This document shows, piece by piece, positions 17,013 to 53,406 of a DNA stretch of 64,000 nucleotides. Origin of the DNA: Escherichia phage Andreotti; sequence record MN850610.1. One strand, given 5' to 3'. The notes beneath the pieces were generated by a model. The model ran no database searches. It was not told the origin of the DNA and was given only the letters and a program-made list of their open reading frames with translations. The position numbers were made by a program, and so were the translations under genes. Position 1 is the first letter of the stretch. Each line of letters starts with the position of its first letter.

Positions 17013-17171
17013 ATGTTCAGTACAGTCATTCTGTTTATACTGGTTGTCTTTGTATTGTCATACGTTGCAAGTAAGCTTTTGGACACATCTTTTGCAATGG
17101 GTGTCTTGTTTACAATCTTTTGTTTCGTGACACATATAGCTATCAGAACTTTTTTTATAAAAAGTTGTTGA
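17013..17171 (+). CDS. possible small hydrophobic protein (52 aa)
   Basis: manual ORF MFSTVILFILVVFVLSYVASKLL...; weak RBS; overlaps predicted promoter, so doubtful. Confidence 0.2.
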   Translation: MFSTVILFILVVFVLSYVASKLLDTSFAMGVLFTIFCFVTHIAIRTFFIKSC

Positions 17172-17195
17172 CATAGAAAATTTGGTGAGTATACT
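17168..17195 (+). promoter_or_regulatory. sigma70-like promoter TTGACA-N16-TATACT
   Basis: consensus -35 TTGACA at 17168-17173, 16-nt spacer, -10 TATACT at 17190-17195; upstream of repeat region and gene 17577. Confidence 0.5.
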
Positions 17196-46540: not shown

Positions 46541-46616
46541 TAAAATAACTTGGAGAATCCGAAGGGACTCGAACCCTTATAAACCTGTTTTGCAGACAGG
46601 CACATATCCATTTCTG
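46541..46616 (-). tRNA. tRNA-Cys (anticodon GCA)
   Basis: manual cloverleaf: 7-bp acceptor GAATCCG/CGGATTC, T-arm AAGGG-TTCGAGT-CCCTT, anticodon loop CUGCAAA, CCA encoded. Confidence 0.75.
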
Positions 46617-46620
46617 TCAC

Positions 46621-46713
46621 GGATTCAAATTGGAGGAAGATACCAGACTTGAACTGGTACACCGATTTCTCAGCTACTGGCAGTTTAGCAAACTGCTCCC
46701 TTACCTTTTAGGG
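46621..46713 (-). tRNA. tRNA-Ser (anticodon GCU), class II with long variable arm
   Basis: 93 nt; acceptor GGAAGAT/ATCTTCC, anticodon stem GCAGT/ACTGC, loop UUGCUAA, T-loop TTCAAGT. Confidence 0.7.
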
Positions 46714-46724
46714 TTAATCTTCCA

Positions 46725-47459
46725 TTATTTCTGTAATGCGCTCTTCATTTCTGGTGTTGCAATAGTGTCAATCACACCAGTTTTACAAGCATCGTCAAAC
46801 CAGTCTGGTAAGATACCTGCTAAGAACCCATTGATATTCGTTTTAAGGTACTCTGCAATAAGGGCAGCTTCTTCTTCAATCATCTGCACAACTTCATCTG
46901 CATAAGCTGTAATCTTTGAAATACCTTCATTAATCTTACTGACAGCTTGGTTAGCTAAATCAGAAACAGTATCAAGACCCTTATCAATAGCATCTTGTAA
47001 GTCACTTAACACACCATTAACACTATCTAGTGTACTGTTCATCATGTCAATAGCTTTTTGACCATACTCTGTAGCAACACCCATGATACCACTGAATGGT
47101 GTACAACCAACTTGTTCTCCTGCTGCACCCATAACATTGGAATACCCCTTTGCTACCTGCATACGTGATGAAAACTCATCAATAGATTTTTGACCGTAGT
47201 CTGTCAGAGTTTTAGTAGTTGCTGTAGTGCTTGTAAGGCTTGTTGTAAAGCTGTTTAGAAGGACTGTTGTAAGTCCAGCAGCAACAAGTTTCTCCTTCAT
47301 TGTAGGGTCTGTTACAGAACTAATAGAGCTTACAAGTGATGTAGAAGCAGCTACGGTTCCACCGAGAACTGCTGCACCAGTAATAAGCGGGTTAGAGAAC
47401 CCTTTACCAGTTTTTAAGAGATTAAAAATCTCCTTACCTTGTTCTGTCATCTCTTTCAT
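46725..47459 (-). CDS. hypothetical protein (244 aa) embedded in tRNA array
   Basis: track ORF 46725-47522 trimmed to ATG 47459 (MKEMTEQ...) so it does not overlap tRNA-Phe; Ser/Thr/Ala-rich. Confidence 0.55.
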   Translation of the reverse strand: MKEMTEQGKEIFNLLKTGKGFSNPLITGAAVLGGTVAASTSLVSSISSVTDPTMKEKLVAAGLTTVLLNSFTTSLTSTTATTKTLTDYGQKSIDEFSSRMQVAKGYSNVMGAAGEQVGCTPFSGIMGVATEYGQKAIDMMNSTLDSVNGVLSDLQDAIDKGLDTVSDLANQAVSKINEGISKITAYADEVVQMIEEEAALIAEYLKTNINGFLAGILPDWFDDACKTGVIDTIATPEMKSALQK

Positions 47460-47475
47460 TAAGCACCTTTGAAAT

Positions 47476-47552
47476 TGGTAGTCCAGTGGGATTTGAACCC
47501 TCTTCTCATGTTTTTCAGACACGCGCTTTAACCATATAAGCTACTTGGACTA
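47476..47552 (-). tRNA. tRNA-Phe (anticodon GAA), tentative
   Basis: anticodon arm CGTGT-CUGAAAA-ACATG; T-loop TTCAAAT with one stem mismatch; ends approximate. Confidence 0.55.
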
Positions 47553-47557
47553 TAAAT

Positions 47558-47633
47558 TGGGGTGACCTACGGGATTTGAACCCGTATAGACCATGTTCAC
47601 AGCATGGGTCATTACCGTTTATGATAAGGCCAC
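47558..47633 (-). tRNA. tRNA-His (anticodon GUG)
   Basis: acceptor with one G-U, T-arm ACGGG-TTCAAAT-CCCGT, anticodon stem CCATG/CATGG, CCA encoded. Confidence 0.7.
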
Positions 47634-47664
47634 ATTTAAGGACTCTCGCAAGAATCCTTAGAAG

Positions 47665-47740
47665 TGGCAGCGGCATAAGGATTTGAACCTTAATAGGACA
47701 GCTTCAGAGGCTGCTGCATTGCCAGTTATGCTATACCGCT
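47665..47740 (-). tRNA. tRNA-Gln (anticodon CUG)
   Basis: T-arm TAAGG-TTCAAAT-CCTTA; anticodon loop CUCUGAA; CCA encoded. Confidence 0.65.
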
Positions 47741-47745
47741 AAATT

Positions 47746-47824
47746 TGGTACTCCATATCGGATTCGAACCGATACATAACACAGATTTTAAGTCTGGCCT
47801 CTCTGCCAATTGGAGTAATGGAGC
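47746..47824 (-). tRNA. tRNA with Leu anticodon UAA, short variable region (atypical)
   Basis: T-arm ATCGG-TTCGAAT-CCGAT, anticodon loop CUUAAAA, D-loop AAUUGGCAG, A73, CCA encoded, 79 nt. Confidence 0.55.
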
Positions 47825-47826
47825 AT

Positions 47827-47902
47827 TGGCGGGGGATGTTGGAATTGAACCAACTTCTTCGATTTCAAAGACCGAGGTTTTAACCTTGTAAACTAATCCC
47901 CT
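47827..47902 (-). tRNA. tRNA-Gln (anticodon UUG)
   Basis: T-arm GTTGG-TTCAATT-CCAAC, anticodon loop CUUUGAA; 1-72 mismatch. Confidence 0.6.
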
Positions 47903-47910
47903 TTAAATCT

Positions 47911-48468
47911 TTACTTTCTCAGTGGATGAATAAAGAATGCCAACATAACTCTTTCCCTTGAGAATGCTCTTTCTTCTGGGACAACACTTTTTAGTTTCCA
48001 TCCAACATAAATTCTCCAGTAAAACTGTTTACCAAAGATTTTAATTGACGGAATAAAAGCGAATAATCCCCAAGCATTGTTGTTCCACATTAGGAGATAA
48101 CCTGTCTGATTATCTTCAGGGTCAGAACTTACGTTGATATTACCTTTCCACTTAGTAACATCTTTTACATCTCTTCCTAATACATGGTAAGAGAAGTTAT
48201 AAGCTTTGTTTCTCCAGAGCCATCCAACTCTCTGCATATAAACACCGAGCTTGCCAATCTTTCTAATCTTAGCCCATCTCTCAACGTGGCCTTTATCACC
48301 ATCAATCGGGTTGTCATAGGTCTCCATCCATCTGAATCCAAAAGGTAGATGCCCTTTCTTCTCACTGTAGAATGGAACTACGAAAGGTGCTAAGATGACT
48401 GCTAGGGTTGCTGCAAATGGTTCTAGTAAAGCTAGGAAAATCCATGAAGCATACTTCAAATATCTCAT
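47911..48468 (-). CDS. hypothetical membrane protein (185 aa) within tRNA array
   Basis: N-terminal hydrophobic segment WIFLALLEPFAATLAVILAPFVVPF; AAGAGG RBS. Confidence 0.55.
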   Translation of the reverse strand: MRYLKYASWIFLALLEPFAATLAVILAPFVVPFYSEKKGHLPFGFRWMETYDNPIDGDKGHVERWAKIRKIGKLGVYMQRVGWLWRNKAYNFSYHVLGRDVKDVTKWKGNINVSSDPEDNQTGYLLMWNNNAWGLFAFIPSIKIFGKQFYWRIYVGWKLKSVVPEERAFSRERVMLAFFIHPLRK

Positions 48469-48486
48469 CTAAATAGCCTCTTAAAA

Positions 48487-48564
48487 TTGGTGTTCCAAGA
48501 CGGATTCGAACCGTCACTAATACAAGGTTTGAGCTTGCATCCTCTGCCAATTGGGATACTGGAA
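48487..48564 (-). tRNA. tRNA with Leu anticodon CAA, short variable region (atypical)
   Basis: T-arm GACGG-TTCGAAT-CCGTC, anticodon arm GCAAG-CUCAAAC-CUUGU, D-loop AAUUGGCAG, A73. Confidence 0.55.
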
Positions 48565-48565
48565 C

Positions 48566-48640
48566 ATGGTACTCACTAAAGGACTTGAACCTTTTTCTTC
48601 ATCTTGTAAGGGTGATGTTTTACCATATAAACTAAGCGAG
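48566..48640 (-). tRNA. tRNA-Val (anticodon UAC)
   Basis: T-arm AAAGG-TTCAAGT-CCTTT; anticodon stem 5 bp incl. G-U, loop CUUACAA. Confidence 0.7.
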
Positions 48641-48736
48641 TGTGAAAGAGGTCTGAAGTTGTGCCGCTAACTCAACTCCGTGGAATTTGTTACGGTCTTC
48701 AGTTGACACCAGCGGTCTTTCACTTGACCTCTGAAT

Positions 48737-48813
48737 TGGTGCTGCTCACAGGACTCGAACCTGCATTTCCATCCTTACAAGGGATGTGTAATAGCCAATT
48801 ATACGAAAGCAGC
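48737..48813 (-). tRNA. tRNA-Thr (anticodon UGU)
   Basis: T-loop TTCGAGT; anticodon stem 5 bp, loop CUUGUAA. Confidence 0.7.
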
Positions 48814-48819
48814 ATTGTT

Positions 48820-48894
48820 TGGAGCATCCAGAGGGAATCGAACCCTCAACCTCAGTTTGGAAGACTGTAATTTTCCCGTTTAAACTATGGATGC
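48820..48894 (-). tRNA. tRNA-Gly (anticodon UCC)
   Basis: perfect acceptor, T-arm GAGGG-TTCGATT-CCCTC, anticodon loop CUUCCAA. Confidence 0.7.
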
Positions 48895-48900
48895 ACTAAT

Positions 48901-48976
48901 TGGTGGAGTCACTGAGAATTGAACTCAGTTCCCAAGTTTGCAAAACTCGAATTTTAACCATATAAACTATGACCCC
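48901..48976 (-). tRNA. tRNA-Ala (anticodon UGC)
   Basis: G3-U70 pair in acceptor (Ala identity element); T-arm CTGAG-TTCAATT-CTCAG; anticodon loop UUUGCAA. Confidence 0.7.
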
Positions 48977-48982
48977 ATTGTT

Positions 48983-49058
48983 TGGTACAGGTGGAGGGAA
49001 TTGAACCCATCGTCTTACTGATTAAGAGTCAGCCGCATAACCATTTTGCTACACCTGC
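48983..49058 (-). tRNA. tRNA-Lys (anticodon CUU), tentative
   Basis: T-loop TTCAATT with one stem mismatch; anticodon loop CUCUUAA. Confidence 0.55.
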
Positions 49059-49065
49059 ATTAATT

Positions 49066-49143
49066 TGGTAGGAGACAAGGGATTCGAACCCTCAAACATC
49101 TCGTTCTAAGCGAGATAGGTTTACCAATTACCGTCAATCTCCC
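49066..49143 (-). tRNA. tRNA with Leu anticodon UAG, short variable region (atypical)
   Basis: anticodon arm TCTCG-CUUAGAA-CGAGA perfect; T-loop TTCGAAT; D-loop AAUUGGUAA; A73. Confidence 0.55.
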
Positions 49144-49400
49144 ATTAAATCTTTTTAGAGAACTCCTAAGAACCTAAGCAACAAGGTTCCACAACAAGCT
49201 GTAATAACCTTAGAAGCCCTCTAAAAAGACCTAAAAAGGTCTTTGCATAGTCTTGTTTAATCCGGTGACTAGAACCTTTGGAGAGCTTGATATTATCTCT
49301 TCTCCGTGACACCTACTAGGTGTTTTATCAGTGTGTACGACAATACACGAGGGATACCAAAGCAACATCCGAATGAAGCTTGGCTTTAAATCTTATTAGG

Positions 49401-49488
49401 CGGTAAGTAAAGGAGTCGAACCCTCACCGTATCTCTACAGTGGCAACTGTTTTCAAGACAGTTTGGCTACCATTAGCCGCTACCTACC
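49401..49488 (-). tRNA. tRNA-Ser (anticodon UGA), class II
   Basis: 88 nt; 6-bp anticodon stem AACTGT/ACAGTT, loop CUUGAAA; 19-nt variable arm; T-loop TTCGACT; CCA not encoded. Confidence 0.65.
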
Positions 49489-49501
49489 CCTAATAAGATT
49501 T

Positions 49502-49584
49502 TGGCATGGGACGGAGGAGTTGAACCCCTTTGAAACGGTGTTGGAAGCCGTTGCTCATGCCTTAGAGTCTTAACATCGTCCCAT
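49502..49584 (-). tRNA. tRNA-Trp (anticodon CCA) with enlarged D region
   Basis: perfect acceptor ATGGGAC/GTCCCAT, anticodon arm ACGGC-UUCCAAC-ACCGU; about 7 extra nt between acceptor and anticodon stem. Confidence 0.5.
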
Positions 49585-49724
49585 ACTATAATTCGAAGCT
49601 TACCGTATTATCTCAACACTGTAAAGCCCCTTCTCAGATTATTTACATGTTCTGGAAAACATGAGATACAGACCACCTCCCTACAGGAAGACCCGCTAAG
49701 GTCGTCTAAGTAATCTGCTAACTA

Positions 49725-49801
49725 ATTGGCACACCCTACAGGATTCGAACCTGTAACTAACGATTTAGAAGACCGTTGCTCTATCCAATTGAACTAAGGG
49801 T
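49725..49801 (-). tRNA. tRNA-Arg (anticodon UCU)
   Basis: T-arm ACAGG-TTCGAAT-CCTGT; anticodon loop CUUCUAA. Confidence 0.65.
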
Positions 49802-50049
49802 GCATTAATCTTTAAAGACTCTCTTAGAAAGCCCTTAAAGATGCCCACCTTATTAATCATACCGTGGGCGAGTACGCCAAATTCTTTGATGAGGGATTGG
49901 AAGACCTCACTGGTGTTTAGCCTATCAAGCTACTGCCAGAAAAACATTGTCGTTTGCATTTATTTTAAATTTGCAAAATAGACGCTACGCAACGAAAACT
50001 AAGGGTACTATAAAGTAGTCACATCTCAATGTCAACAACTTTATTGAAT

Positions 50050-50124
50050 TTGGTTGTAGGTGAGGGTATCGAACCCTCTTCTAACGGTTATCAGCCGTTT
50101 GCATTACCATTTATGCTAACCCAC
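50050..50124 (-). tRNA. tRNA-Ile (anticodon GAU)
   Basis: T-arm GAGGG-TTCGATA-CCCTC; perfect 5-bp anticodon stem, loop CUGAUAA. Confidence 0.75.
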
Positions 50125-50126
50125 AA

Positions 50127-50203
50127 TTGGAGGTTCAGATGGGATTCGAACCCACATTCATAGGGCTTATGAGACCCTTGCATTACCTTATCTGCGACTG
50201 AAC
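50127..50203 (-). tRNA. tRNA-Met (anticodon CAU), elongator-type
   Basis: perfect acceptor GGTTCAG/CTGAACC; T-loop TTCGAAT; anticodon loop CUCAUAA. Confidence 0.65.
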
Positions 50204-50207
50204 CATT

Positions 50208-50283
50208 TTGGTAGAAGTGGAGGGATTCGAACCCATCGCCTGTCAGATTAAAAGTCTGCCGCATCACCATTCTGCTACACTTC
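50208..50283 (-). tRNA. tRNA-Lys (anticodon UUU)
   Basis: T-loop TTCGAAT; anticodon loop CUUUUAA. Confidence 0.6.
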
Positions 50284-50293
50284 CATTAAATTA

Positions 50294-50440
50294 TCTTTGT
50301 AGATAAGCTACCCAGACTTGCTTAAGGTCTGTAGCGATGTGCCTTTATGGGTTTAAAATCTAGAATTTACCCTTTCACCCTTTGTGGTCGCATACTCACA
50401 GGTAAGCTTAATAACTTATCTACAAAGATAATTACCAGAC
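50294..50440 (-). repeat. structured non-coding element bounded by a perfect 17-bp inverted repeat
   Basis: TTATCTTTGTAGATAAG (50294-50310) and its exact reverse complement (50424-50440) enclose 113 nt containing nested inverted repeat GCTACCCAGAC / GTCTGTAGC. Confidence 0.6.
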
Positions 50441-50713
50441 CGTTATTTATCATCTTAAGTGCTACCATTACACCAACTCGACATCTGCCGAGTGAAGGAA
50501 TCGAACCTTCGCCTTTTCTTTACCGAGAAATAGATTGTTTAAGTTTTGCTGTAAACGGTCTTCTGTAAATTTGTTGAGCCAGACCAAGTTTTAAATTTTT
50601 CAAAATTGAATTGGCTTGAAATTTTAAGTAACTTGCTGAATTTGGTCTTCTGCTCCTTTAAAGGATACTCGTAAGAACCCTTTAAGGGAGGGGCTAAATA
50701 GCCCTCTCAAAAT

Positions 50714-50789
50714 TGGCGAGGTATGCGAGAATCGAACTCGCGGCTCAGGAGAGACAGTCCCGTATTTTGCCCATCTAAACTAATACCCC
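50714..50789 (-). tRNA. tRNA-Asp (anticodon GUC), tentative
   Basis: acceptor GGGGTAT/ATACCTC, T-arm GCGAG-TTCGATT-CTCGC; anticodon loop CUGUCUC has U at position 37. Confidence 0.55.
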
Positions 50790-50795
50790 AAAAAT

Positions 50796-51224
50796 CTATG
50801 TACCATTTCTTAGGTACTTCTCTTTACGCCTTGCTGGATTGTAGTGCTTGCGTCCTTCTGCGTTTTTAGCAAGTCTGCAAGGTTCACACCTACAACCTCT
50901 TCTATAACCAGACACTGTGCCATGTTTAATTGGTGTGTATTTCCTATCACCAATCTGGGCTGGCCTAGTTGCTTTTGAATTACATTGTATGTGGCTGTAA
51001 GATATATTGTCAAGTGAGAAGAAAAGCTCTTTTGCATTCTCTTCATGTCTCCAAGGAACTTTATGTTCTATAGAGAAATCAACTCTGGACATTTCTTTTC
51101 CACAATGGTGACACTTATTCTGTCCAGTTTTACAAACCAAATCAAAGAGTAAATCTTTAACAAGCCTGTTCTGGGCTGTTCCTAAGCTCATACCAAGTTG
51201 TGACTTGTAAACTTCATTCTTCAT
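50796..51224 (-). CDS. HNH endonuclease (putative homing endonuclease) inside tRNA array
   Basis: CHHCGKEMSRVDFSIEHKVPWRHEEN...H (HNH-type His/Asn spacing); C-terminal GYRRGCRCEPCR. Confidence 0.7.
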   Translation of the reverse strand: MKNEVYKSQLGMSLGTAQNRLVKDLLFDLVCKTGQNKCHHCGKEMSRVDFSIEHKVPWRHEENAKELFFSLDNISYSHIQCNSKATRPAQIGDRKYTPIKHGTVSGYRRGCRCEPCRLAKNAEGRKHYNPARRKEKYLRNGT

Positions 51225-51246
51225 AGTATCAACATCTTATTAAAAT

Positions 51247-51331
51247 TGGTGCGCCCATCTGGACTCGAACCAGAAACCTTGAAAGGGACAGTTTTACAGA
51301 CTGCTGCATTGACCATCTCTGCCATGAACGC
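51247..51331 (-). tRNA. tRNA-Tyr (anticodon GUA), class II
   Basis: 85 nt; T-arm TCTGG-TTCGAGT-CCAGA; anticodon loop CUGUAAA; hairpin variable arm; CCA encoded. Confidence 0.65.
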
Positions 51332-51341
51332 ATTTAAATTT

Positions 51342-51418
51342 TGGCGGTTAGTCAGGGATTCGAACCCTGTGCCATTCGCTTAACAGGCGACCGCACATAC
51401 CTTATGTGCTTCCTAACC
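51342..51418 (-). tRNA. tRNA-Asn (anticodon GUU)
   Basis: T-arm CAGGG-TTCGAAT-CCCTG; anticodon loop CUGUUAA. Confidence 0.65.
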
Positions 51419-51495
51419 TTAATACATTGCCAGACCGTGTTTTTTCTTTTATCCGCAAAAAGTATTTTGTTGCTGTAAACGGTCTTCTGTAAATT

Positions 51496-51571
51496 TGGAG
51501 GCGGGTGCAGGAGTCGAACCTGCCGATACCATGCTAATGAGACATGTGAGACGCCCTTTCTCTATACCCGC
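51496..51571 (-). tRNA. second CAU-anticodon tRNA (Met, or Ile2 via lysidine), irregular acceptor
   Basis: T-arm GCAGG-TTCGACT-CCTGC; anticodon loop CUCAUUA; acceptor pairs only with a 1-nt register shift. Confidence 0.45.
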
Positions 51572-51663
51572 AATTCTTAATGACCAGACCAAATCTCTTC
51601 TTTGTCCGATTTACCTTCAGATGAATAAGATTAAGTTTGCTGTAATTGGTCTTCTGTCAAAAC

Positions 51664-51741
51664 TGGCGTTCCAGAAGGGATTTGAACCCTCAGATATCCA
51701 CTTTGAAAGAGTGGTGACTATACCATTTTGTCTACTGGAAC
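51664..51741 (-). tRNA. tRNA-Glu (anticodon UUC)
   Basis: perfect acceptor; T-loop TTCAAAT; perfect 5-bp anticodon stem, loop CUUUCAA. Confidence 0.7.
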
Positions 51742-51748
51742 ATTAATT

Positions 51749-51825
51749 TGGTCTCTGTTGGAGGATTTGAACCTCCGGCCTTACCGCCCCAAACGGAACG
51801 CTCTACCAAGCTGAGCTAAACAGAG
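51749..51825 (-). tRNA. tRNA-Pro (anticodon UGG)
   Basis: perfect acceptor CTCTGTT/AACAGAG, T-arm GGAGG-TTCAAAT-CCTCC, anticodon loop UUUGGGG (G37). Confidence 0.7.
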
Positions 51826-51990
51826 ATAAACTTTTCAAACTCTATGTAACCACTTTAACATTATTTTTTAGTGGTTGTCAAGAACTTTTTTAAAATATTT
51901 TTCAGTATCTTAGAAAAGCTCTCGTTTCGTCTCTATGTAGAACATATTAAAGGGTATCAAACACATTGTCAATACCCTTTTTAAAACTTT

Positions 51991-53406
51991 TTACCAGATA
52001 TAACGGTCAATCATTACTGCTTTGAGCATTACACTGATTGGGTCAAACTTCTCACCACCAAGCAGAGCTTTTAAAGTGGCTGGAGAGAACCCTGATACCA
52101 TTGCTACACCGTTATCCTTAACAGATACTTCGCAAGTACCATTACGGTTTGCTAAGTACCAGAATACCAGTTGTGGCATCTCATATCCAGCTTTTTTGTA
52201 CTTACTCTGAATTGCTTCAAAGTTTGTACGTCCGTTAGCTCCATCAACCTGATTGAACTCCATATCGGAGAAGATGATAAGCTTACTTGGCATATCTTTC
52301 TGAGTCAAGTTGTTTCTTTTACCTGTTTCAAGAATGCGGTCAAAAGCTGCTTGTAAGTTAGTTGAGCCATATTCAACGTGTCGCATCACCTGACGATGAC
52401 GGTTTCGTAAATCACCACTCAGTTCGATGAAGTGAGGGTTTGTTGAATAAACCATCAACTCATTCTTAAAGCAACCTGTATTGCGTTCTGCTACATACAA
52501 GGCAAGTGATACACCAATATCAAGAGCAGTAATGGAGCCAAAATTCACCCAAGACATTGAGCTTGAAACATCAGACATACATAGAATGTTTTCACCCTCT
52601 GCCATCCAGTTTGGTAGTGCTTTCCACTGCTCATTAGCAACATCTGCATTACCATACTTAACAGATTTAATCACATCGTATGGGTAAACAGCACCAGCGT
52701 TAATCTTAGTCTCACCTTTTGATAAGGACTCGATGTAAGCTTTGTAACGTTCCCCATCTTTACGGTTAAAGAGTTTTTGGTAACGTGCAGCAGCAAGTGA
52801 AGGAATCTTACTGTAGTCAATCTTACCAAACTCATTAGCAGAGATTTTTTGCTCAACTGTATCAGAGAGTGCAGACAACAGTGTGCGGTACTCTTTCTCA
52901 CTCAAGTTGGCAAATTTGCAGAAACGTTTTACAAACTGCTTGTGACGTGGTTTGACTCGTGGTAACCACTTAGCTGCCAAACCTGCTGTTGCAGGGTCTA
53001 GTAATGCTGCTTCTAAATGTTTGAAGGCATCTGTCTCGAAACGAGTACCTACGAAGATTTTGAAGTCATCAAAACGACCAAGTTCTGCAATCTTATCCAT
53101 AATGCGAAGAACCTGTGCAGGCTCTAAAACTTTGTCTTCAATCGCTTGAAGCAAAACAGTTCTGAAGGCTTTACGCTCACCCATACCTTCTCGTACATCT
53201 CGCATATGCAGTAAAATACGAACTGAAACATCAACATCCTCACGCAAAGCTTTGTAGAACAGGTCTGGTAAGATTTCTACATTGCTACGACTTGAACCAG
53301 CAGCTTTGTAAAAGTCTACAAGAGCAGACATTGATGAAGTATGGTTTACAGCACCATTTTCAGTTCGACCTGCATGAAGGTGCGCATGTTTAAATAACTC
53401 GCTCAT
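51991..53406 (-). CDS. von Willebrand factor A (vWA) domain protein with N-terminal helical domain (471 aa)
   Basis: MIDAS-type DxSxS motif in LCMSDVSSSM followed by alternating hydrophobic strands; about 250-aa helical N-terminal region; directly upstream of tRNA array. Confidence 0.6.
   Translation of the reverse strand: MSELFKHAHLHAGRTENGAVNHTSSMSALVDFYKAAGSSRSNVEILPDLFYKALREDVDVSVRILLHMRDVREGMGERKAFRTVLLQAIEDKVLEPAQVLRIMDKIAELGRFDDFKIFVGTRFETDAFKHLEAALLDPATAGLAAKWLPRVKPRHKQFVKRFCKFANLSEKEYRTLLSALSDTVEQKISANEFGKIDYSKIPSLAAARYQKLFNRKDGERYKAYIESLSKGETKINAGAVYPYDVIKSVKYGNADVANEQWKALPNWMAEGENILCMSDVSSSMSWVNFGSITALDIGVSLALYVAERNTGCFKNELMVYSTNPHFIELSGDLRNRHRQVMRHVEYGSTNLQAAFDRILETGKRNNLTQKDMPSKLIIFSDMEFNQVDGANGRTNFEAIQSKYKKAGYEMPQLVFWYLANRNGTCEVSVKDNGVAMVSGFSPATLKALLGGEKFDPISVMLKAVMIDRYIW

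Follow-up and report, generated by a model that had tools for sequence, protein, structure and literature searches.

Introduction

The closest described relatives of the RNAs reported here are the YrlA RNAs of bacteria and some phages, which are circularly permuted tRNAs whose acceptor stem is closed, encoded on the same strand as the Ro60 gene and at most 4 kb from it (PMC4201824; bioRxiv 10.1101/312249). The criteria for this class include in vivo binding to Ro60/Rsr and modification of the T and D loops by TruB and DusA (PMC4201824). In Thermus phage phiLo, a phage Ro60 protein binds its own Y-like RNAs and forms complexes with the host PNPase (PMC12135203). A preprint describes gp130 of phage Bas63, a homologue of the protein considered below, as Ro60-like and as countering the 'ppl' defence system; Y RNAs were merely conjectured for it, and its RNA partners were guessed to be hidden among annotated tRNAs (PMC11482910). 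Outside phages and bacteria, the Class I RNAs of Dictyostelium (RF01414), reported as unique to dictyostelids, are about 60 nt long and combine a short covarying terminal stem with a conserved 3′ CUGU, the C of which has a conserved 5′ G as its pairing partner (Kjellin et al. 2021, PMC7919456).

Results

The tRNA Array of Phage Andreotti

The window analysed comprises 64,000 nt of Escherichia phage Andreotti (record MN850610.1), a Felix O1-like phage (Felixounavirus). ARAGORN called 25 tRNA genes on the minus strand; they are densely packed in an array that also holds homing endonuclease genes. All features described below lie on the minus strand. At the head of the array two sigma-70-like promoters, TTGACA-17-TAATAT and TTGACA-18-TAAAGT, were recognized by consensus matches only (51852–51972), and no terminator-like site was found on this strand between them and the RNA named U4 below. 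Within the same array, a tmRNA-like tag frame at 49957–49925 encodes ANDNVFLAVA. A complete tmRNA at 49925–50108, as indicated by an Rfam tmRNA_permuted match, was considered and rejected, as the match relies on a T-arm that belongs to tRNA-Ile.

A Circularly Permuted tRNA-like Domain in U4

A sequence-only reading of this DNA had placed a perfect T-arm on the minus strand at 50488–50509. The T-arm is indeed present, a few bases off, at 50510–50494 (GAAGG-UUCGAUU-CCUUC), with the T-loop UUCGAUU, a G53-C61 pair and a partial Rfam tRNA match over model positions 43–63. Our results indicate that it likely belongs to a non-coding RNA, U4 (50432–50568, roughly 125–137 nt), which shares its layout with the bacterial YrlA Y RNAs and which we propose as the ligand of a Ro60-like protein. 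From 5′ to 3′, U4 comprises an outer stem, an internal loop, a closing stem, a conserved motif, a V hairpin, the T-arm, a closed acceptor hairpin and a D-arm, with a minimum free energy fold of −34 kcal/mol (z = −2.25). The outer stem UUAC/GUAA has 4 bp and is followed by the internal loop AGA/G, after which the ends of the RNA pair as a 7–8-bp closing stem, AGACCGUU/AACGGUCU, enclosing the tRNA-like domain. The 5′ strand of this stem leads into the conserved single-stranded motif UACAGCAA (50546–50561; motif counts at distant loci and alignment), the whole 5′ region reading AGACCGUUUACAGCAA, and the 3′ strand is followed by G-GUAA (50437–50444; fold and conservation). [quoted passage not shown]

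The V hairpin, UCU-A-UUUCU ... AGAAA-AGG (50512–50534), stands where a tRNA has its variable arm and is the least certain of the helices. Directly 3′ of the T-arm, ACUCGGC-A (50493–50486) enters a 7-bp closed acceptor-like hairpin, ACUCGGC-AGAU-GUCGAGU (50476–50493), which is supported by fold and covariation. The earlier statement that no 5′ acceptor strand exists within 100 nt was therefore wrong: the partner GUCGAGU lies 4 nt downstream and had been missed because it was sought upstream, as in a normal tRNA, while U4 is circularly permuted. The D-arm GUGU-AAUGGUA-GCAC (50459–50473; fold and conservation) has A14, G18, G19 and A21 and is preceded by U-G at tRNA positions 8–9; in the alignment of U4 and its relatives, positions 15 and 48 do not consistently form a canonical Levitt pair. 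U4 is not a canonical tRNA, as ARAGORN made no call and no full Rfam tRNA match was obtained; it has no anticodon arm, the closing stem standing in its place, and its acceptor is a closed hairpin instead of joined 5′ and 3′ ends. Rfam searches of the array and of the gap alone at permissive thresholds gave no family for U4, only the partial match to the T-arm.

U4 is conserved across Felixounavirus, Mooglevirus and Suspvirus. In 10 Ounavirinae phages, 95.3% of the cells in its helices are paired, vs. 39–48% in slid controls. All cells of the acceptor hairpin (100%) are paired in these 10 phages, with both sides changed at 3 of the 7 pairs; in relatives it reads ACACGU-UACG-GCGUGU or ACCCUUC-GCCAAACA-GAAGGGU, and in different phages it is closed off by one of the stable tetraloops UACG, GUAA, GCAA and GAAA. 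The V hairpin, the sequence of which differs in Moogle and HP1, is paired in 8 of the 10 relatives (87.5% of cells), and the T-arm and D-arm are invariant in all 10. A MAFFT alignment of 17 divergent units with a tRNA domain proved unreliable past the T-arm and was kept out of the pair counts, covariance models being used in its place.

U4 might also be read as a permuted or split gene that matures into a chargeable two-piece tRNA-like or tmRNA-like molecule, its acceptor hairpin being opened by RNase P and 3′ processing enzymes and CCA being added, perhaps in conjunction with the tag at 49957–49925. Its gene order is that of permuted tmRNAs, its acceptor stem has 7 bp counted from G1 with a discriminator A, and the tag-like frame lies in the same array. 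Moreover, the same geometry makes the YrlA of M. smegmatis a substrate of RNase P and of the CCA-adding enzyme (PMC4201824). We consider this maturation very improbable. The place of an anticodon arm is taken by the closing stem, CCA is not encoded, the G3-U70 alanine identity pair is lacking, and neither ARAGORN nor the Rfam tmRNA_permuted model recognizes U4. Relatives with 6-bp or stable-tetraloop-capped acceptor stems argue that the acceptor loop stays closed. The tag-like frame is a separate transcription unit with its own promoter, about 480 nt and three tRNAs away, and on the same evidence U4 was rejected as a tRNA-like domain serving that tag.

Simple Units in the Same Array

Three further units, U1–U3, show the stem and the motif of the YrlA-like U4 and do not have the tRNA-like domain. 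U3 (50576–50655, core 50648–50581; AGACCAA + AUUCAGCAA ... UUGGUCU-G) lies directly upstream of U4, in tandem; U2 (51427–51490, core 51485–51432; AGACCGU + UUACAGCAA ... ACGGUCU-G) occupies the gap between tRNA-Met and tRNA-Asn, and U1 (51579–51659, core 51652–51586; AGACCAA + UUACAGCAA ... UUGGUCU-G) that between tRNA-Glu and tRNA-Met. When covariance model R1, built only from 37 units of distant phages and none from the window, was run over the 64-kb window, E-values below 1e-5 were obtained only for U1 (39.2 bits, E = 3.5e-7), U2 (40.1 bits, E = 2.1e-7) and U3 (34.6 bits, E = 4.9e-6), and the 5′ half of U4 was partially matched. The stem of U3 shows no variation in 10 phages. Because the stems of U1–U4 are invariant within Ounavirinae, their covariation could be drawn only from distant units.

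The Neighbouring Protein Has a Predicted Ro60-like Fold

The proposed RNA partner of these units is a 471-AA protein encoded at 51991–53406; U4 lies 1.4 kb downstream of this gene and on the same minus strand. Pfam assigned only DUF2828 and DUF7788 to the protein, with no TROVE match, and PHROG 850 labels it 'RNA-binding protein'. Its AlphaFold2 model (pLDDT 83) shows helical repeats over residues 28–263 and an alpha/beta domain over residues 274–471. In Foldseek searches against the PDB, the best 11 matches were all Ro60, Rsr, TROVE or phage Ro60 structures (E 1e-7 to 6e-6), that of phiLo among them, and these matches extended over the full length (about 500 aligned columns, query-normalised TM-score up to 0.62). 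The HEAT-like helical-repeat ring and vWA domain that serve as the criterion of Ro60 are thus both seen in the predicted structure. With phmmer against PDB sequences no relevant match, and no solved Ro60, was found; tblastn returned mycobacteriophage genes annotated as 'Ro-like RNA binding protein' at E 1e-60 to 1e-76. The vWA protein is therefore Ro60-like by predicted fold, with no sequence-level membership of Ro60/TROVE.

At least 709 sequenced phage genomes encode a Ro-like protein of the DUF2828 type. Among the carriers are Felix O1-type phages used in typing and therapy, Listeria phage A511, myoviruses of staphylococci and enterococci, large vibriophages and mycobacteriophages.

An RNA Family beside DUF2828 Genes in Other Phages

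The association between units and protein was tested without circularity at 75 distant DUF2828 loci (974 kb). The motif AGR-N5-NN-C[AC]GCAA was found 100 times on the strand of the protein gene vs. 10 times on the opposite strand, and at 80 of the 100 sites a complementary 8-mer with a following G closes the stem, vs. 22.5% with shuffled stems. For the 7-bp closing stem in 37 distant units, some of which had been chosen for complementarity, 87 cells were changed on both sides and the score was 0.79 vs. 0.08–0.17 for slid stems. Model R3, made from the U4 of six Ounavirinae, detected 34 relatives in distant loci beside DUF2828 genes, all 34 on the strand of the gene (best E = 1e-10); several of these sites were matched also by Rfam YrlA (E from 1.4e-7 to 0.04). 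The signature of the family is a 7-bp stem beginning AGR, a CAGCAA motif and a 3′ CUG, and some of its copies carry the tRNA mimic. No annotation or description of it was found in the records, Rfam release and literature searched.

DUF2828 genes sit within tRNA arrays at nearly all loci examined, and only a few nucleotides separate the units from the tRNAs on either side. The stem-plus-CAGCAA units could thus be cis-acting signals in the tRNA precursor, acting in processing, in stability or as folding insulators for host RNases, and their proximity to DUF2828 would then reflect merely a common residence in tRNA arrays; binding of the units to the protein is, for its part, read from genomic linkage. 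This seems to us clearly unlikely. In Mycobacterium phage Krypton555 the Ro-like gene is directly adjoined by three units, and 9 kb of sequence there holds one tRNA; in Listeria phage A511 three units lie directly upstream of the DUF2828 gene, behind a promoter-like TTGACA. Conversely, the tRNA array of the Vequintavirinae phage TH18 (8 kb covered, no DUF2828 match found) contains no CAGCAA unit, and generally the units are concentrated within about 1 kb of the DUF2828 gene and are not spread array-wide. An unpaired conserved motif of 8–9 nt and a tRNA-shaped module are also more in keeping with a protein ligand than with an RNase site.

Elements A and C

The 85-nt element that had been described as bounded by the inverted repeat GAGGTC/GACCTC and devoid of a T-loop was confirmed as a conserved rod-shaped RNA (element A, 48647–48732), its ends being GAGGTC at 48648–48653 and GACCTC at 48726–48731. 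It folds at −30.7 kcal/mol (z = −2.96) into helices of 7 + 4 + 7 + 6 + 4 bp with a GAAGA bulge and a 10-nt loop. Element A is 96–98% identical across Felixounavirus, Mooglevirus and Suspvirus and 81% identical in phage TH18, where the apical 27-nt segment is invariant and one compensatory change, G-C to U-A, is seen. ARAGORN called no tRNA, no Rfam family was matched, and neither a T-loop nor another tRNA-like feature was found in it. Membership of the U family and partnership with DUF2828 were both rejected for it, since its model finds 0 copies in the 75 distant DUF2828 loci and the TH18 fragment bearing it shows neither a DUF2828 match nor a CAGCAA unit. The earlier suggestion of a non-coding RNA module tied to the vWA protein thus holds for the T-arm element, a YrlA-type mimic beside a Ro60-like protein, and does not extend to element A, for which no such link was found. 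The 9-mer GAAGACCGU is common to element A, U2 and U4.

Element A is a conserved, presumably stable RNA separate from the U family, in which the invariant apical loop and the bulge probably form a binding site. The tRNA cluster of phage T4 encodes stable RNAs known as 'species 1' and 'species 2' (rnaC, rnaD), which are small and matured by the tRNA-processing machinery. They are the nearest analogue of element A, likened to it by description only, and we know of no Ro-like partner for them.

Could U4 and element A be decayed tRNA genes or recombination scars that serve no function themselves, as when one tRNA contributes its T-arm and 3′ acceptor strand and the following tRNA its 5′ half? The setting, a dense tRNA array with homing endonuclease genes, would suit such an origin, and junctions of adjacent tRNAs can imitate the order T-arm then D-arm, a caveat raised by Chen et al. 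(PMC4201824). Neither ARAGORN nor the Rfam tRNA model calls these elements, so that the ordinary tRNAs which the sequence-only reading allowed it might have missed did not appear for either. Its proposal of decay is unsupported and now scarcely credible, being largely refuted by conservation and covariation. Both elements are conserved to a degree equal to or above that of the neighbouring sequence, between genera in the case of element A, and keep their helices via compensatory changes. The acceptor hairpin of U4 is retained in this way, with stable tetraloop caps in different phages, its T-arm and D-arm do not vary, and the same architecture, stem and motif recur in unrelated phages beside the same protein.

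Element C (49502–49584) is a tRNA-Trp(CCA) that had been overlooked; its D region holds about 6 additional nt, and its CCA end is encoded. Its cloverleaf is 100% paired, with both-side changes at 5 pairs vs. 0 in slid controls. After deletion of 6 nt, ARAGORN calls tRNA-Trp in element C and in two divergent homologues, and with this insertion removed the element has the features of a canonical tRNA. Among the 25 called tRNAs, Trp is the sole amino acid missing.

Discussion

We propose that U1–U4 are transcribed together with the tRNAs from the array promoters and would be freed as RNase P and 3′ processing enzymes excise the flanking tRNAs, their ends being shielded by the terminal stem. The Ro60-like ring-plus-vWA protein would then bind the stem and the motif, as suggested by genomic linkage, and the RNA may gate the protein ring or tether it to another factor, as in known Ro60/Y RNA particles. 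In U4, the tRNA-shaped module could in addition recruit a tRNA-recognising protein. The likeliest use in infection would be RNA surveillance or anti-defence, because Bas63 gp130 is reported to counter ppl, which means that one member of the DUF2828 family reportedly acts against a bacterial defence system (PMC11482910).

Candidate RNA partners of DUF2828 proteins can now be given exact coordinates in unannotated gaps. With these coordinates, the family signature and the copies bearing a tRNA mimic, binding, processing and knockout work can be designed directly, and seed alignments exist for a covariance model absent from Rfam. The seemingly 'empty' spacers of phage tRNA arrays carry several conserved structured RNAs overlooked by standard annotation, including, in the Andreotti array, the tRNA of the twentieth amino acid, Trp.

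Comparison with Known Systems

In genes for permuted tmRNAs the T-arm comes first and is followed by the 3′ acceptor strand, a loop and the 5′ acceptor strand. U4 resembles a two-piece tmRNA in this T-arm/acceptor order and in a long helix in place of the anticodon arm. It differs in its full D-arm, in a C-G third acceptor pair instead of G3-U70, and in having neither an encoded CCA nor an adjoining tag frame; as ARAGORN called no tmRNA and the Rfam tmRNA_permuted model gave no match, we do not assign it to this class.

The best, though weak, Rfam match of the simple units was to the Dictyostelium Class I RNAs: RF01414 gave 14–24 bits for U1–U3 and 28–31 bits for relatives (at most 30.8), all below the 41.5-bit threshold. 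The two kinds of RNA are similar in length, and both have a covarying terminal stem. In Class I RNAs an unpaired 11-nt CCUUACAGCAA follows right after the 5′ strand of the stem, and the phage motif occupies a like place; the phage consensus UUACAGCAA agrees with five near-universal Class I positions (U3, C6, C9, A10 and A11), and many phage units end CU-GU where Class I RNAs end CUGU. However, Class I RNAs are eukaryotic, have their own DUSE-dependent promoters and a known direct binder in the RRM protein Rnp1A, and in the literature compared they are not known to be tied to any Ro-like protein. The likeness may be convergent or due to chance, and it is unlikely that the phage stem + UUACAGCAA RNAs and the Class I RNAs form one class. 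If they did, a Ro-like DUF2828 protein would have the Class I RNAs as Y-RNA-like ligands, and the protein-RNA pair would be common to eukaryotes and to phages that infect Gram-negative, Gram-positive and actinobacterial hosts.

Thermus phage phiLo likewise pairs a phage Ro60-fold protein (PDB 9KOP, 9L5Y) with adjacent RNAs, Yrl1 and Yrl2 (PMC12135203). These RNAs were found via a CGAA motif and have a classical stem-bulge-stem form, and the passages compared make no mention of a tRNA-like domain; the phiLo system was shown experimentally, whereas the Felix O1-type system is known here from sequence and models.

A search with Y-RNA models, which the sequence-only reading had advised, was the right lead for U4 and missed U4 itself: the Rfam YrlA model (RF02553) gave no match to U4 even at E up to 10, its gathering threshold being 69 bits, and elsewhere matched the tRNA-like core of U4 relatives at 28.7–39.2 bits, below that threshold. 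In the sole full-length YrlA alignment of a relative, the model segment cggCgaAUGC has no counterpart. Because the YrlA motif GNCGAAN0-1G (related to GGUCCGA) is absent from U4 and the Rfam thresholds are not reached, we class U4 as a variant and not as a canonical YrlA. In the phage units, a 7-bp stem beginning AGR, a motif W-N-A/U-CAGCAA and a 3′ CUG replace the Ro-binding motif; the partner is a DUF2828+DUF7788 protein with no Pfam TROVE in place of a TROVE protein, and the units are housed inside a phage tRNA array, where one genome may have as many as four to six of them. In architecture the likeness is close. U4, as YrlA, is a modular RNA in which the 5′ and 3′ ends pair as a stem carrying the binding module (in U4, a proposed one), the V, T, closed-acceptor and D stem-loops follow in the same circularly permuted order, and a Ro60-type gene, here a DUF2828 gene Ro60-like by predicted fold, lies within 4 kb on the same strand. 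Both RNAs also have simpler siblings with a common binding module, YrlB in the one case and U1–U3 in the other.

The tRNA array and the Ro-like protein at its head

According to ARAGORN the minus strand carries 25 tRNA genes from position 46551 to 51825, and blastn analysis placed the array region among Felix O1-like phages (Ounavirinae, Felixounavirus), with 94-98% identity to many genomes. The inter-tRNA spacers in the records of these phages carry no annotation or short, dubious ORFs. The tRNA-Met(CAU) at 51496-51572 (minus strand) is the sole one of the 25 without an Rfam tRNA match at E-values up to 10. Between tRNA-Asp and tRNA-Tyr lies a 142-AA ORF (50796-51224, minus strand) with no match in Pfam; its relatives are annotated as HNH homing endonucleases and it is missing in some related phages, a pattern consistent with reshaping of the array by mobile endonuclease insertions.

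The gene at the array head (51991-53406, minus strand) encodes a 471-AA protein with Pfam domains DUF2828 and DUF7788, assigned to PHROG 850 ('RNA-binding protein'). The AlphaFold2 model obtained from a 37-sequence alignment (pLDDT 83, pTM 0.85) predicts helical repeats in the first domain and an alpha/beta fold in the second. The best 11 Foldseek matches of this model in the PDB were all Ro60 proteins, aligned at full length, including Xenopus Ro60, Deinococcus Rsr, human Ro60 and the Ro60 of Thermus phage phiLo; isolated vWA domains ranked directly after them. No match to the solved Ro60s was found at the sequence level. Homologues were detected by tblastn in 709 phage records, among them mycobacteriophage genes labelled 'Ro-like RNA binding protein'. 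As judged from the predicted fold, the candidate partner of U4, the Y-RNA-like RNA described below, is a divergent Ro-like protein.

A circularly permuted tRNA-like domain in U4

The sequence-only reading had pointed to a perfect T-arm lacking an acceptor partner. The T-arm, GAAGG-UUCGAUU-CCUUC, was indeed found at 50510-50494 (minus strand), with the acceptor-like strand ACUCGGC-A after it. The partner taken to be missing is on the other side: GUCGAGU, separated by four bases in the downstream direction, pairs with this strand into a 7-bp acceptor hairpin (50493-50476). Past the hairpin come U-G and GUGU-AAUGGUA-GCAC (50473-50459), which has the form of a standard D-arm; a further hairpin occupies the variable-arm position 5' of the T-arm, and the whole domain is framed by a AGACCGUU/AACGGUCU stem and an outer UUAC/GUAA stem. 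Because the acceptor partner lies downstream with the D-arm next, the variable-arm hairpin lies upstream and a stem encloses them all, we conclude that the U4 domain is a circularly permuted tRNA without the anticodon arm.

For analysis of conservation, U4 was aligned from ten Ounavirinae genomes of Felixounavirus, Mooglevirus and Suspvirus. Over the named structure 95.3% of the cells were paired vs. 39-48% with slid partners. The acceptor hairpin varies by phage (ACUCGGC/GUCGAGU, ACACGU-UACG-GCGUGU, ACCCUUC/GAAGGGU) with pairing kept at 100% and both-side changes in three of its seven pairs; the T-arm, D-arm and closing stems showed no variation among the ten.

U4 belongs to a family of stem-closed units

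Four minus-strand sites in the array combine the 5' sequence ACAGAAGACC-N3-U-N-CAGCAA with a 3' GGUCUGG: U1 (51652-51586), U2 (51485-51432), U3 (50648-50581) and U4 (50561-50437). The units share the unpaired motif UACAGCAA and AGR/YCU at the base of the closing stem. U1-U3 are stem-closed candidate RNAs of 54-68 nt, and U4 shares their frame, into which the tRNA-like domain is inserted. Since two promoter-like sites lie upstream of tRNA-Pro with no intervening terminators, U1-U4 would be transcribed together with the array tRNAs; the U RNAs may then be processed and bound by protein. At 49585-49726 (minus strand), AGACGACC ... GGUGGUCU-GUAU looks like a fifth stem unit in degenerate form: seven of eight pairs are present and the CAGCAA motif is missing; Mooglevirus relatives have a 23-nt insertion there.

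Related units beside DUF2828 genes of distant phages

We fetched 80 viral contigs, each encoding a DUF2828 homologue at 38-99% identity. A pattern scan of the distant contigs revealed modules composed of a T-arm, a closed hairpin and a D-arm, every one on the strand of the gene. Many of them are capped by GNRA or UNCG loops, and each is enclosed by a stem of phage-specific sequence. After the stem these distant units have (U/A)N(A/U)CAGCAA, and the stem ends in YCU-G. A non-circular association test covered 75 distant loci (974 kb). The 5' motif by itself was found 100 times on the gene's strand vs. 10 times on the other, with about 15 per strand expected by chance; for 80 of the 100 motifs a complementary 8-mer with a G after it, no more than 260 nt away, closed the unit, vs. 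22.5% with shuffled stems. The units are concentrated within approximately 1 kb of the DUF2828 gene. Listeria phage A511 has three directly upstream of gp57. In Mycobacterium phage Krypton555 the Ro-like gene has three immediately on its downstream side, the middle one with a tRNA-like domain. Among 37 simple units, which were selected for complementarity, the inner positions of the 7-bp stem show all four Watson-Crick pair types, 87 cells have changes on both sides, and the stem covariation score is 0.79 vs. 0.08-0.17 for slid controls.

Covariance models were built from the distant simple units only (R1) and from Ounavirinae U4 only (R3). Within the 64-kb window R1 detected U2 (E = 2.1e-7), U1 (3.5e-7) and U3 (4.9e-6), and matched the 5' half of U4 at E = 0.45; the sole further match at E up to 10 was at 17150-17184 (10.5 bits, E = 4.8). 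R3 identified 34 sites in the distant loci, with E-values down to 1e-10 and all on the gene's strand. Several of these are matched independently by the Rfam YrlA model (E from 1.4e-7 to 0.04), at 29-39 bits, below its 69-bit threshold, and mostly over the tRNA-like core only.

In two distant loci (L052:6734-6833 and L059:6758-6853) the stem and CAGCAA frame holds a tRNA-like insert in normal order, with D-arm, anticodon-like arm and T-arm and the acceptor stem missing; the tRNA-derived modules that the frame can hold are therefore of more than one kind. Another distant DUF2828-encoding contig (L030:8605-9054) has a complete tmRNA, which at 75 bits exceeds the threshold, adjoining its tRNA array and stem-CAGCAA units.

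Other structured elements of the array

The 85-nt element bounded by GAGGTC/GACCTC, also proposed from sequence inspection, proved real (element A, 48732-48647; rod fold, z = -2.96). It is the best-conserved spacer of the array, with 96-98% identity across three Ounavirinae genera, and a copy with 81% identity is present in Vequintavirinae phage TH18, again among tRNA genes of an array; its apical 27 nt are invariant, and a G-C to U-A change preserves the outer-stem pairing. We found no tRNA features in element A, a model of it detected no copy in the 75 distant DUF2828 loci, and the TH18 fragment showed neither a DUF2828 gene nor a CAGCAA unit. Element A is a separate conserved structured RNA; our best guess, held with low confidence, is a stable RNA freed by tRNA processing and acting via its invariant loop and bulge.

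Element C (49502-49584, minus strand) is an unannotated tRNA-Trp(CCA) that folds as a cloverleaf. Its first acceptor pair is A1-U72, position 73 is G, the CCA end is encoded, the anticodon loop reads Y-U-CCA-A-M, and the D region is longer than usual by approximately 6 nt. Intact, it is called by neither ARAGORN nor Rfam; upon a 6-nt deletion ARAGORN calls tRNA-Trp in the window element and in two divergent homologues. Its anticodon stem has four compensatory pairs between phage genera, and the 25 called tRNAs cover every amino acid except Trp.

The span 49804-50050 (minus strand) has a near-consensus promoter, TTGACA-17-TATAGT (50035-50007), and downstream of it a tmRNA-like tag region. The tag frame (49957-49925), AAAAUAAAU GCA AAC GAC AAU GUU UUU CUG GCA GUA GCU UGA, predicts the peptide ANDNVFLAVA followed by a stop, and its stop codons lie within a hairpin loop. 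Two Rfam models gave sub-threshold scores, tmRNA_permuted at 30.7 bits (E = 1e-4) and tmRNA at 15.9 bits; ARAGORN called no tmRNA in the region, and we found no tRNA-like domain of its own. Differences in the tag within Ounavirinae are synonymous or swap one stop codon for another. Homologues occur in 582 phage records, e.g., Kuttervirus FEC14 (tag ANDNTFLAVA, synonymous changes).

Two further spacers on the minus strand are conserved and structured. The one between U4 and tRNA-Lys(UUU) (50285-50432) has a closing stem of about 24 bp, AUUAUCUUUGUAGAUAAG/CUUAUCUACAAAGAUAAU, with several both-side pair changes between Felixounavirus and the Mooglevirus/Suspvirus group; six such pairs occur over the whole predicted structure, the interior of which differs between the groups. 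The other spacer (49144-49398, 255 nt), flanked by tRNA-Ser(UGA) and tRNA-Leu(UAG), contains several hairpins in a core of about 115 nt that hardly varies, and a long 3' hairpin shows two compensated pairs and many G-U changes.

Comparison with known RNAs

The best Rfam match of U1-U3 and of other phages' simple units is a weak one to Dictyostelium Class I RNA, at up to 30.8 bits vs. a threshold of 41.5 bits. Class I RNAs are described as molecules of about 60 nt whose ends form a covarying stem, with CCUUACAGCAA immediately behind its 5' strand and a conserved 3' CUGU (PMC7919456). The phage simple units resemble this description in each of these features, which might reflect common ancestry or a shared protein partner, or might be convergent or due to chance.

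By the definition of Chen et al. 2014 (PMC4201824), a YrlA is a Y RNA whose gene shares the strand of the Ro60 gene and lies within 4 kb of it; it contains the motif GNCGAAN0-1G together with tRNA-mimicking stem-loops named V, T, AS and D. Most YrlAs are described as circularly permuted tRNAs with closed acceptor stems (preprint 10.1101/312249). The phage phiLo Ro60 is reported to bind two Y-like RNAs and host PNPase (PMC12135203). In Felixounavirus Bas63, the DUF2828 protein gp130 is reported to be Ro60-like and to counter the ppl defence, and the same 2024 preprint offers only the speculation that Y RNAs might be present among the annotated tRNAs (PMC11482910); our literature search found no paper mapping Y-RNA-like RNAs in Felix O1-type phages. 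U4 is built like a YrlA Y RNA and, from its sequence, would work like one. It differs from YrlA in two defining tests, as the GNCGAA motif is missing from the window U4 and the Rfam YrlA model gives no match to it. Given these two differences and a predicted partner that is a divergent Ro-like protein, we therefore class U4 as a YrlA-like variant.
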